Shown here one piece after another: positions 1-2,287 of a stretch of DNA of 2,287 nt. The position numbers and the translations under genes were made by a program. How positions within the stretch are numbered: position 1 is the first letter of the stretch; each line of letters opens with the position of its first letter. The notes beneath the pieces were generated by a model. It was given only the letters and a program-made list of their open reading frames with translations. It did no database searches and had not been told where the DNA came from. Source of the stretch: Escherichia phage PTK; the sequence record MW512266.1; one strand, written 5' to 3'.

Positions 1-1835
1 ATAGAGGAGTTCACACAACAGGCGAAATTTCATCTGGAGCAGTGAATGCTCTTCGTATTTGGAATGCAGATTATGGAGTCATTTTTAGACGTTCGGAAGG
101 TAGTCTTCATATTATTCCAACTGCTTACGGTGAAGGTAAACATGGCGATATCGGTCCACTTCGCCCGTTTAGTATGGCTTTAGATACTGGTAAAGTTACT
201 ATTCCAGATTTACAATCAAGTTACAATACATTCGCAGCAAACGGTTATATTAAATTTACTGGTCACGGCGCTGGCGCTGGTGGTTATGATATTCAATATG
301 TTCAAGCAGCTCCTATTTTCCAGGAAATTGATGATGATGCTGTAAGCAAATATTATCCTATTGTTAAACAGAAGTTTTTAAACGGCAAAGCTGTTTGGTC
401 TTTAGGTACTGAAATTAATTCGGGTACATTCGTTATTCATCATCTGAAAGAAGATGGTTCACAAGGCCATACGTCTCGTTTTAATCAGGACGGTACTGTT
501 AACTTCCCAGATAACGTACAGGTTGGCGGTGGTGAAGCTACTATTGCTCGAAATGGTAATATCTTCTCCAACATTTGGAACGTATTTACCTCTGCTGGTG
601 ATATAACCAACCTTCATGATGCTATTGCCTCCCGTGTGGCTAAAGAAGGCGACACGATGACAGGCCGTTTAACTCTGAATGCAAACTCGGATGCTATTGT
701 TATTAACAGTGCTGCAACCGAATCTTGTTATGTGAAAGGACAAAAAGCGGGCGTTAATAACTGGTATGTTGGTAATGGCGGCGCTGAGAACACCTTATCG
801 TTTTATAGTTTCCAAACTAATTCAGGCGTTAGTATTCATAATAGCGGAGAAGTTGGTTTAGCTCCTCAAGGGTCGGATACTTTTTATTTTAATAGGGACC
901 GACTTTATATAAAGGCTGCACAATGGGTTGCCCATCAATCTGGTGCATGGGGTGACCAATGGGGTTTAGAAGCGCCTGTATTTGTGGATTTTGGCAATGT
1001 CGGTAATGATAGTTATTACCCGATTATCAAAGGAAAATCTGGTATTACTAACGAAGGATACATATCGGGTGTAGATTTTGGTATGCGACGCATTACTAAT
1101 AACTGGGCACAAGGTATTATTCGTGTAGGTAACCAGGAAAACGGCCATGACCCACAAGCTATCTTCGAATTCCACTATAATGGAAACATGTACGTTCCTG
1201 ACATGGTTAAAGCTGGAGTAAGATTATCAGCTGGCGGCGGTGACCCTGCATGGACTGGACCATGTCTTGTTATTGGTGATAATGACACTGGCTTAGTATG
1301 GGGTGGTGACGGCCGAATAAATATGGTTGCCAATGGTATACATATTGCAAACTGGGGAGCAGGCTATCAATCTCATCCTGGGCTTTGGGATTCAACCGGT
1401 GCTTTTTGGACTGAAACAGGAAGAGCTATCGTTTCTCATGGGCATCTCGTTCAGGCAAATGATAGTTATTCAACGTATGTCCGTGATGTTTATGTCCGTT
1501 CTGATATTCGTGTTAAAAAAGACCTTGTTAAATTTGAAAATGCTTCTGAGAAGCTTTCTAAAATTAACGGTTACACTTATATGCAGAAGCGAGGCCTAGA
1601 TGAAGAAGGCAATCAGAAATGGGAACCTAACGCAGGTTTGATAGCTCAAGAAGTTCAAGCTATTTTACCTGAATTAGTTGAAGGTGACCCTGATGGCGAA
1701 GCTTTACTTCGTTTGAACTATAACGGTGTAATTGGTTTAAATACAGCTGCAATCAATGAGCATACTGCAGAAATTGCAGAACTTAAGTCAGAGATTGAAG
1801 AGCTTAAAAAATTAGTTAAATCATTGTTAAAATAA
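1..1835 (+). CDS. gp37: Distal long tail fibre subunit (gp37-like), 5'-partial; C-terminal ~610 codons, with the shaft/tip region and a C-terminal chaperone domain
   Basis: Seen in sequence: a continuous open frame (first full codon at 3-5) runs from the window edge to TAA at 1833-1835, followed by a second in-frame TAA at 1836-1838. The ORF-track start at 42 is a GTG read as Met; there is no stop upstream, so the true start lies outside the window. Composition is fibre-like (rich in G/N/S/T/Y, GxGxG runs such as HGAGAGGYD, no hydrophobic core helices). Gene order (fibre gene directly followed by a gp38-like adhesin gene) and the C-terminal domain match T2-type gp37 from established knowledge. 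No search was run. Confidence 0.85.
1503..1832 (+). other. C-terminal intramolecular chaperone (peptidase S74-like) domain of the fibre protein; predicted self-cleavage between Ser (1500-1502) and Asp (1503-1505)
   Basis: Seen in sequence: the motif V-R-S-D-I-R-V-K-K (codons 1494-1520) has Ser and Lys five residues apart. It is followed by ~110 residues ending in a heptad-patterned amphipathic helix ([27 protein letters not shown], ~1752-1832). Established knowledge: the auto-cleaving C-terminal chaperone domains of phage tail spikes and fibres (K1F endosialidase, T5 L-shaped fibre, T2-type gp37) cut at a conserved Ser using a Ser-Lys dyad and release a ~100-150 aa fragment. The exact cleavage position is inferred from the motif. 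Confidence 0.65.
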
Positions 1836-1838
1836 TAA

Positions 1839-1856
1839 GAGGGGCTTCGGTCCCTT
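1839..1856 (+). promoter_or_regulatory. Intercistronic RNA hairpin with a C(UUCG)G tetraloop, between the fibre-gene stop and the adhesin RBS
   Basis: Seen in sequence: 5'-GAGGGGC-UUCG-GUCCCUU-3'. Pairs are C1845-G1850 closing the loop, then G1844-U1851 (wobble), G1843-C1852, G1842-C1853, G1841-C1854, A1840-U1855, and possibly G1839-U1856. The loop is UUCG (1846-1849). Established knowledge: C(UUCG)G hairpins are unusually stable and were first noted in T4 intercistronic regions. There is no U-tract after the stem, so this is not a canonical intrinsic terminator. Confidence 0.5.
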
Positions 1857-1861
1857 GGAGG
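1857..1861 (+). promoter_or_regulatory. Shine-Dalgarno sequence (GGAGG) for the downstream adhesin gene
   Basis: Seen in sequence: GGAGG at 1857-1861, then a 5-nt spacer (TTTAT), then ATG at 1867-1869. Confidence 0.7.
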
Positions 1862-1866
1862 TTTAT

Positions 1867-2287
1867 ATGGCAGTTGAAGGACCGTGGGTAGGATGGTCTG
1901 CAAGGGTACAGACTGGAGATCCTTGGATGGGTGGTGCCGCACAGAGATTGAGAATGGGAATTCCGTTTTGGATGAGTAATATGATAGGTCGATCTGTTGA
2001 AGTAATTCACACGCTTGGAGCAGACCATAACTTCAATGGTCAATGGTTCCGAGATAGATGTTTTGAGGCAGGTAGTGCACCTATAGTGTTTAATATCACC
2101 GGAAATTTAGTATCATATTCTAAAGATGTTCCTTTATTCTTCATGTACGGAGATACGCCAAATGAATATGTTACTTTGAATATTCATGGTGGAGTTCATA
2201 TGTGGGGACGAGGTGGTAACGGCACTGTAAACGGAAACCCAGGCACAAATGGCGGCGATGTAATCCAAAATGATATCGGCGGAAGAC
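1867..2287 (+). CDS. gp38: Long-tail-fibre tip adhesin (gp38-like, T2-type receptor-recognising protein), 3'-partial; N-terminal attachment domain plus the start of the first glycine-rich motif
   Basis: Seen in sequence: ATG at 1867 with a strong upstream RBS, and a frame open for 140 codons to the window edge (absent from the ORF track only because no stop lies in the window). The translation [10 protein letters not shown]...[62 protein letters not shown]... is followed by a Gly/Asn-rich stretch [26 protein letters not shown]. Established knowledge (from memory, not a search): this conserved N-terminal block followed by glycine-rich motifs characterises the gp38 adhesins of T2/K3/Ox2-type phages. 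Confidence 0.85.

Follow-up and report, generated by a model that had tools for sequence, protein, structure and literature searches.

The 3' end of gene 37 of Escherichia phage PTK (MW512266.1) is predicted to encode, in its last 111 codons before the stop (positions 1500..1832, + strand), a peptidase S74 / intramolecular chaperone domain with a Ser-Lys catalytic dyad. This identification draws on profile matches, on conservation among homologues and on a structural model. The chaperone probably removes itself by autoproteolysis at the Arg499-Ser500 bond, after which the gp38 adhesin would cap the tail fibre tip that is left behind.

Gene organisation of the window

The window, that is, the whole stretch of 2287 bases that was analysed, carries two incomplete genes: first gene 37, for the long tail fibre distal subunit, represented by its 3' end, and then the gene for a T2-type gp38 adhesin, represented by its 5' part. 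In this gene 37/38 region its DNA is ~90-91% identical, over the full length, to that of RB69-like (Mosigvirus) phages. The ORF listing gives the gene 37 part as a frame 3 ORF of 610 codons plus stop (3..1835, +), open at the 5' end of the window and closed by a TAA at 1833-1835 (+), and its product is assigned in PHROG to the long tail fibre distal subunit. Two overlapping ORFs at the site discussed below (1327-1599 on the + strand and 1270-1395 on the - strand) are unsupported and lie inside the strongly conserved gene 37 coding frame.

A spacer of 31 bases separates genes 37 and 38; it contains a Shine-Dalgarno sequence (GGAGG) at 1857-1861, and gene 38 starts with an ATG at 1867. The spacer also includes a C(UUCG)G-loop hairpin (1839..1856, +), predicted by RNA folding to have a 7-bp stem and a UUCG loop; its folding energy is unexceptional (z-score -1.5). 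The 5' part of gene 38 occupies 1867..2287 (+) and is open at its 3' end; it matches Pfam Gp38_N and GP38, the former defining an N-terminal attachment domain at 1867-1986 (+).

A peptidase S74 domain at the C-terminus of gp37

An earlier, sequence-only reading of this DNA had singled out a Ser-Lys motif at 1494-1523 as a possible autoproteolytic site. Its coordinates and frame are borne out by the codons: GTC (1494, V), CGT (1497, R), TCT (1500, S), GAT (1503, D), ATT (1506, I), CGT (1509, R), GTT (1512, V), AAA (1515, K), AAA (1518, K) and GAC (1521, D). This catalytic-site block (1494..1523, +), read directly, can be aligned with that of S16 (DLNVSSDRRIKKD). The predicted catalytic Ser (1500..1502, +), residue 500 of the window translation, corresponds to S993 of RB69 gp37, S638 of S16 gp37 and S911 of endoNF. 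The predicted catalytic Lys (1515..1517, +), Lys505, would be the general base; it lies at Ser+5 and corresponds to K916 of endoNF, K1269 of T5 and K592 of MYRF. The i, i+5 spacing is the same in endoNF (S911/K916), T5 pb1 (S1264/K1269) and S16 gp37 (S638/K643).

Taken by itself, the bare S-x4-K motif is within chance expectation: shuffles of the window gp37 give 1.8 occurrences of S....K per protein against 2 observed, and SD...K, which occurs once, is present in 10% of shuffles. Its significance comes from context. The motif was counted as real because the Pfam S74 profile begins at the Ser and because the Ser, Asp and Lys residues are invariant in homologues. Since the fold match and the alignment to characterised catalytic residues also count against a fortuitous spacing devoid of catalytic meaning, that explanation has a negligible probability.

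The Pfam Peptidase_S74 profile (PF13884, 'chaperone of endosialidase') matches residues 500-559 (Pfam core 1500-1679) with scores of 49.1 and 50.1 bits (E 7e-13 and 3.4e-13), for a curated gathering cut-off of 22 bits. The match spans profile positions 1-57 of 58, and position 1 is Ser500. A match to an S74 profile over 1503-1832 was a test that the sequence-only reading had itself named for its proposed chaperone domain; this search gave a strong match (E 3.4e-13). The predicted chaperone ends at the gp37 stop codon (1833-1835), at the extreme C-terminus of the tail fibre protein. Matches to it, as a 111-residue module, occur in 32 PHROG tail-protein families, at their very C-termini, a spread that would be expected of a portable C-terminal folding module.

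Conservation was assessed in 81 related viral loci, 80 of them found by peptide patterns elsewhere in the domain (GLIAQ..., LRLNYNG), with RB69 added. Ser, Asp+1 and Lys+5 occur without exception (81/81 loci, at 37-97% identity); Arg+3 is kept in 77/81, and RSDxRxK is conserved in homologues. The residue at -1 to the catalytic Ser varies freely (R/T/S/G/P). The proposal that the Ser and Lys form a catalytic dyad is supported by this invariance together with their alignment to characterised catalytic residues.

The homologous-protein search returned mainly short or partial proteins, three of which (P0024, P0026 and P0027) keep the distal chaperone and are without the catalytic block. Because of these three proteins the Ser and Lys are missing from the MAFFT list of invariant columns, which was replaced by the locus-based analysis.

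An AlphaFold2 monomer model of the last 141 residues of gp37 (mean pLDDT 81.6) shows strands at 55-102 followed by a helix at 104-140. This long C-terminal helix by DSSP (1719..1829, +; pLDDT >90) has a heptad pattern and is predicted to be the trimerising coiled coil of the chaperone. In Foldseek searches the only significant PDB neighbours of the model were the MYRF ICA (7DC3, E 1e-6, TM ~0.6, 25% identity) and the endoNF CIMCD (3GW6, probability ~1). PDB 6F45 was not returned by Foldseek for the chaperone model, as would be expected if that crystal was without the chaperone. By phmmer, chain A of 6F45 (the S16 gp37 construct) matches query residues 421-610, covering tip and chaperone, with an E of 3.6e-46. 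The S74 / intramolecular chaperone assignment of the sequence-only reading is thereby sustained by the PF13884 match, by the fold match and by the 6F45 alignment.

Comparison with RB69

The orthologous gp37 of RB69 (NP_861944.1, 1103 aa) is 110/111 identical over the 111-residue chaperone and reads RSDIRVKK at R992/S993/D994/K998; the gene order 37-38-t-asiA is also that of RB69. The two phages differ upstream of the chaperone, in the tip (nt 1201-1499), where DNA identity is 81% and there are 15 amino-acid changes. Cleavage is not annotated in the public RB69 gp37 record.

DNA identity to RB69 rises from 81% in the tip (1201-1499) to 97% over the chaperone, and it reaches 100% where the gp38 attachment domain is encoded. 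Codon changes with respect to RB69 number 1 non-synonymous and 9 synonymous in the chaperone, and 15 and 26, respectively, in the tip. The chaperone is under strong constraint. Either the chaperone, the domain predicted to be discarded, and the gp38 docking domain are far more constrained than the tip between which and the adhesin they lie, or the two domains have been transferred together.

Relationship to characterised self-cleaving chaperones

In characterised members of the family, the chaperone trimerises by a C-terminal coiled coil, embraces the nascent tip and removes itself by means of its Ser-Lys dyad. Substitution of the Ser by Ala or of the Lys by Ala blocks cleavage in endoNF, T5, MYRF and MrfA. 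In endoNF and T5 the active site is completed by a basic folding 'sensor' residue from the neighbouring chain (R897 and R1250, respectively); studies of MYRF indicate that an upstream 'sensor' residue is not universal. An R-D pair at -6/-5 from the Ser is common to the window protein and S16 gp37.

The closest parallel is with the gp37-gp38 pair of phage S16 (PDB 6F45; Dunne et al. 2018). The S16 fibre has a trimeric tip, a Ser-Asp-x3-Lys motif and a chaperone of ~111 aa, together with a monomeric gp38 adhesin which docks by three Trp; its chaperone is 56% and its gp38 46% identical to those of the window. However, the catalytic Ser is preceded by another Ser in S16 and by Arg here, and the two proteins have diverged in the tip upstream, where the 6F45 alignment shows an insertion of 11 residues in the window protein.

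A second parallel, with T2, is older. In T2 and T6, gp37 is described as proteolytically processed and then capped by gp38, and in the classical account of T2 (Drexler, Riede & Henning 1986) a C-terminal piece of gp37 is reported to be lost before gp38 caps the fibre. Neither the exact site nor the mechanism had been defined at that time.

The CIMCD of endoNF from phage K1F (PDB 3GW6), the MEROPS/Pfam S74 prototype, resembles the window domain in fold, in its dyad (S911/K916) and in lying at the C-terminus; it is released once the trimer has folded, as would be the case here. It differs in having Asn instead of Asp at +1 and in its length (154 aa vs 111). The structure that it caps is the triple beta-helix of a tailspike enzyme, whereas here it would be a fibre tip to which an adhesin is added afterwards; beyond the core the two sequences have negligible identity. 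The pb1 protein of the T5 L-shaped tail fibre (PDB 4UW8) also ends in a self-cleaving chaperone, with the same S1264/K1269 spacing, whose release unmasks a receptor-binding end. In T5, however, the unmasked tip itself binds the receptor, whereas here it would bind a separate adhesin. The best structural match is the ICA of MYRF/MrfA (PDB 7DC3), in which the same dyad performs a self-cleavage that depends on trimerisation and a C-terminal triple coiled coil drives trimer formation (MYRF). In this eukaryotic case the protein is a membrane-tethered transcription factor, and cleavage frees an active N-terminal factor instead of maturing a virion fibre.

Which bond would be cut?

The sequence-only reading had placed an exact boundary for the mature fibre at S|D, with release of a 110-residue fragment. 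Cleavage next to the predicted catalytic Ser is supported; the S|D bond and the 110-residue length are insecure, and comparison with endoNF, T5, MYRF and S16 suggests that the cut is probably one residue earlier, at R|S. The two fragments would be close in size: bases 1503-1832 encode 110 aa (12.29 kDa) and bases 1500-1832 encode 111 aa (12.38 kDa).

Overall, R499|S500 (nt 1499|1500) is favoured over S500|D501 (nt 1502|1503), on the weight of the evidence and because attack by the Ser on the preceding carbonyl would be a chemically ordinary route. A Ser hydroxyl would not readily attack the carbonyl of its own residue, while attack on the preceding carbonyl would proceed through a five-membered intermediate. 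T910 is the last residue of every deposited mature chain (1V0E, 3GVJ/K/L) of endoNF, which reads T910-S911-N912...K916, and a bond before the Ser is also given by Senoo et al. 2013, quoting Schulz et al. 2010. The T5 pb1 cut is described as T1263-S1264, with a chaperone of 133 residues, a description argued partly from missing density. Mass spectrometry of MYRF places the cut at P586|S587. For S16 gp37 the cut is written DLNVS^SDRRIKK in a secondary source. This account is internally inconsistent: in the 749-aa protein, with S637-S638-D639, the 'last 113 residues' start at S637, and a cut 'between the two serines' gives 112. A pattern of the S16 type, with the cut before the Ser, implies R|S here, with the Arg codon at 1497-1499 specifying the mature C-terminus and a fragment of 111 residues.

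The alternative retains the same domain and autoproteolysis and puts the cut at Ser500|Asp501, so that the mature fibre would end in ...VYVRS and the fragment would have 110 residues (12.29 kDa). In its favour, intact-mass ESI-MS of EP335 gp13 gives S621|D622, in a paper that calls a cut after the Ser the family rule, LC-MS/MS of MrfA yields a peptide that begins at D768, immediately after the Ser, and the phi29 gp12 appendage is modelled with the Ser as last mature residue. Against this, the mature endoNF chains end at T910, the MYRF data place the cut before the Ser, T5 and S16 (the latter in a secondary source) are described in the same way, and the MrfA authors ascribe their Asp N-terminus to exopeptidase trimming. 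The fPS and T5 papers point to a boundary one residue away from that of the sequence-only reading; given the EP335 mass spectrometry, which favours S|D, this is a preference and not a firm conclusion. On balance, an S|D cut in this phage is about half as likely as R|S.

The domain itself is reportedly described in a 2007 abstract as being cleaved off 'after' the conserved serine, which would also favour S|D. A cut at this position could not be produced by attack of the Ser in cis on the preceding carbonyl; it would call, for example, for attack in trans between subunits or for extra trimming. It is a little less likely again that cutting after the invariant Ser is a property of this gp37 subfamily, as the EP335 gp13 masses and the MrfA peptide suggest, in which case S74 domains would use two chemistries or two registers. 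The cleavage site is absent from the CASP13 authors' account of 6F45, from other S16-related papers and from the BASEL paper, and a full-text literature search on Ser911/Lys916 returned unrelated proteins only.

Proposed maturation pathway and gp38 docking

A pathway of fibre maturation can be proposed in which the chaperone folds the tip, is cut off and discarded, and is followed by gp38, an order of events that homology supports. Three nascent gp37 chains would be brought into register by the C-terminal coiled coil of the chaperone and its beta 'tentacles', and this registration would provide a nucleus from which the beta-structured tip folds as a trimer. With the tip in its correct fold, Lys505 would deprotonate the hydroxyl of Ser500, which would then attack the adjacent peptide bond and so release the chaperone. 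The bond most likely to be cut is Arg499-Ser500 (nt 1499|1500), giving a mature fibre that would end in ...DVYVR and a discarded piece of 111 residues (12.4 kDa) starting with SDIRVKK. The piece lost from T2 gp37 is said to have been of ~120 residues. Release of a fragment of ~12 kDa after trimerisation, as the earlier reading proposed, is likewise what the homologous systems would lead one to expect.

After departure of the chaperone, the N-terminal domain of gp38 would cap the gp37 tip. The analysis itself establishes what the domain is, its fold, the conservation of its dyad and the relatedness of both gp37 and gp38 to their S16 counterparts; that cleavage occurs in this phage, by which chemistry and at which of the bonds flanking the Ser, is inferred. 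The complete scheme, in which chaperone autoproteolysis at R499|S500 precedes gp38 capping, is judged probable.

The nature of the gp38 gene is in keeping with this scheme. Its ORF matches Pfam Gp38_N (E 3.2e-20) and GP38 (E 1.2e-39), and the first 140 aa of the product, the part inside the window, match the PHROG 'tail fiber protein; host specificity' (4e-68). By these matches the window gp38 is classified as a T2-type adhesin and not as a T4-type assembly chaperone. It is 46% identical to S16 gp38, whose tryptophans are matched in the alignment by Trp7, Trp20 and Trp35. According to the S16 authors, the interdigitated domain of gp37 has pockets at its base that receive three Trp of the gp38 N-terminal helical bundle. 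The distal tip of the mature fibre here (1263..1499, +; residues 421-499 of the window translation), delimited by the phmmer match to 6F45 chain A, corresponds by homology to two domains of S16 gp37, the triangular and the interdigitated, which carry gp38. Autocleavage of the chaperone, with exposure of the gp38 docking surface, has been reported for S16 gp37. The suggestion that the new tip is the surface to which gp38 attaches therefore finds support in the homology to the S16 tip and in the conservation of the gp38 N-domain and its docking Trp.

A different arrangement would be that the S74-like domain is present and that gp37 either stays unprocessed or is trimmed by another protease, of the host or of the phage. 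The 1986 work on T2 is compatible with such trimming in that it showed processing and not mechanism. However, the Ser and Lys are strictly invariant across the 81 loci and their replacement by Ala abolishes cleavage in endoNF, T5, MYRF and MrfA. Moreover, an uncleaved chaperone would occupy the surface needed by gp38, and an intact T2-type gp38, with its docking Trp conserved, is encoded downstream. This arrangement is very improbable. Another candidate, a gp37 of the T4 type, which has a built-in adhesin tip, is without S74 and is accompanied by a gp38 that acts as a non-virion assembly chaperone, is ruled out by the S74 domain and by the adhesin-type gp38.

Implications

The C-terminus of this gp37 offers a textbook example of the S74 / intramolecular chaperone family in a T-even context. 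Every defining feature put to the test agrees with that assignment, and the biology concerned is already known. Such processing has been on record since 1986 in T2 and since 2018 in S16, and the same inference has been published, by alignment, for other T-even phages. The finding will not surprise phage structural biologists and its practical value is modest. Published accounts of the family differ by one residue in where they place the scissile bond, and, if the S|D cut were the true one, an extra C-terminal Ser would belong to the gp38 docking surface. The position of the mature gp37 C-terminus matters for the engineering of T2/RB69-type fibres, for swapping gp38 adhesins and for the expression of tips, because constructs need the chaperone for folding and the correct tip end for gp38 docking.

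Identity around the cleavage site

Comparison of window positions 1201-1986 with positions 2701-3486 of the orthologous RB69 locus reveals an abrupt step in identity close to the cleavage site. Nucleotide identity is 81% in the fibre tip (1201-1499), where 15 codon changes are non-synonymous and 26 are synonymous. Identity rises to 97% across the chaperone, the C-terminal peptidase S74 domain of gp37 (1500-1832; 1 non-synonymous and 9 synonymous changes), and reaches 100% in the gp38 attachment domain (1867-1986). Either the chaperone, which would be discarded, and the docking domain of gp38 evolve under far stronger constraint than the tip, or the two were exchanged as a single module.

Published placements of the S74 scissile bond differ by one residue: the cut is put before the serine in endoNF, T5, MYRF and S16 and after it in EP335; for MrfA a peptide with aspartate at its N-terminus was recovered (PMC7917993, PMC4690869, PMC8326128, PMC3828593, PMC8217332). 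For gp37 of Salmonella phage S16 (locus L083, 788-3034), the fPS paper's "last 113 residues" conflicts with its own placement of the cut "between the two serines": in the 749-residue protein, a cut there leaves 112 residues.

A hairpin with a 7-bp stem and a C(UUCG)G tetraloop (1839-1856) lies in the spacer between genes 37 and 38, directly 5' of the gene 38 Shine-Dalgarno sequence GGAGG (1857-1861). Its predicted folding energy is unexceptional relative to shuffled sequences (z -1.5). The hairpin might stabilise the mRNA or act in its processing.

Modular relationships of the fibre

Two regions of the window, 3-206 and 696-845, show weak similarity to fibre modules. In Pfam, residues 3-57 score 18 bits against Gp34_trimer and residues 232-281 score 20 bits against gp37_trimer, both below threshold, and residues 1-68 have a weak PDB match to T4 gp34 (4UXE, E 0.0055). 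Together, these weak matches suggest that the proximal and distal fibre proteins have shaft modules in common.

Four bacterial or prophage database proteins (P0024, P0026, P0027 and P0023) retain the distal two-thirds of the chaperone domain, with the RSDxRxK catalytic block either truncated or replaced by unrelated N-terminal sequence. They are probably remnants of degraded prophage fibre genes, or mis-called ORFs derived from them.

Tail fibres of E. coli and Salmonella prophages that carry collagen-like repeats (PF01391) end in the same chaperone module (database proteins P0009, P0013, P0015-P0017 and P0022). The module also matches the C-terminal ends of proteins in 32 PHROG tail families, some of them annotated as baseplate wedge. 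Its presence in these prophage fibres and PHROG families shows that the chaperone module is extensively shuffled.
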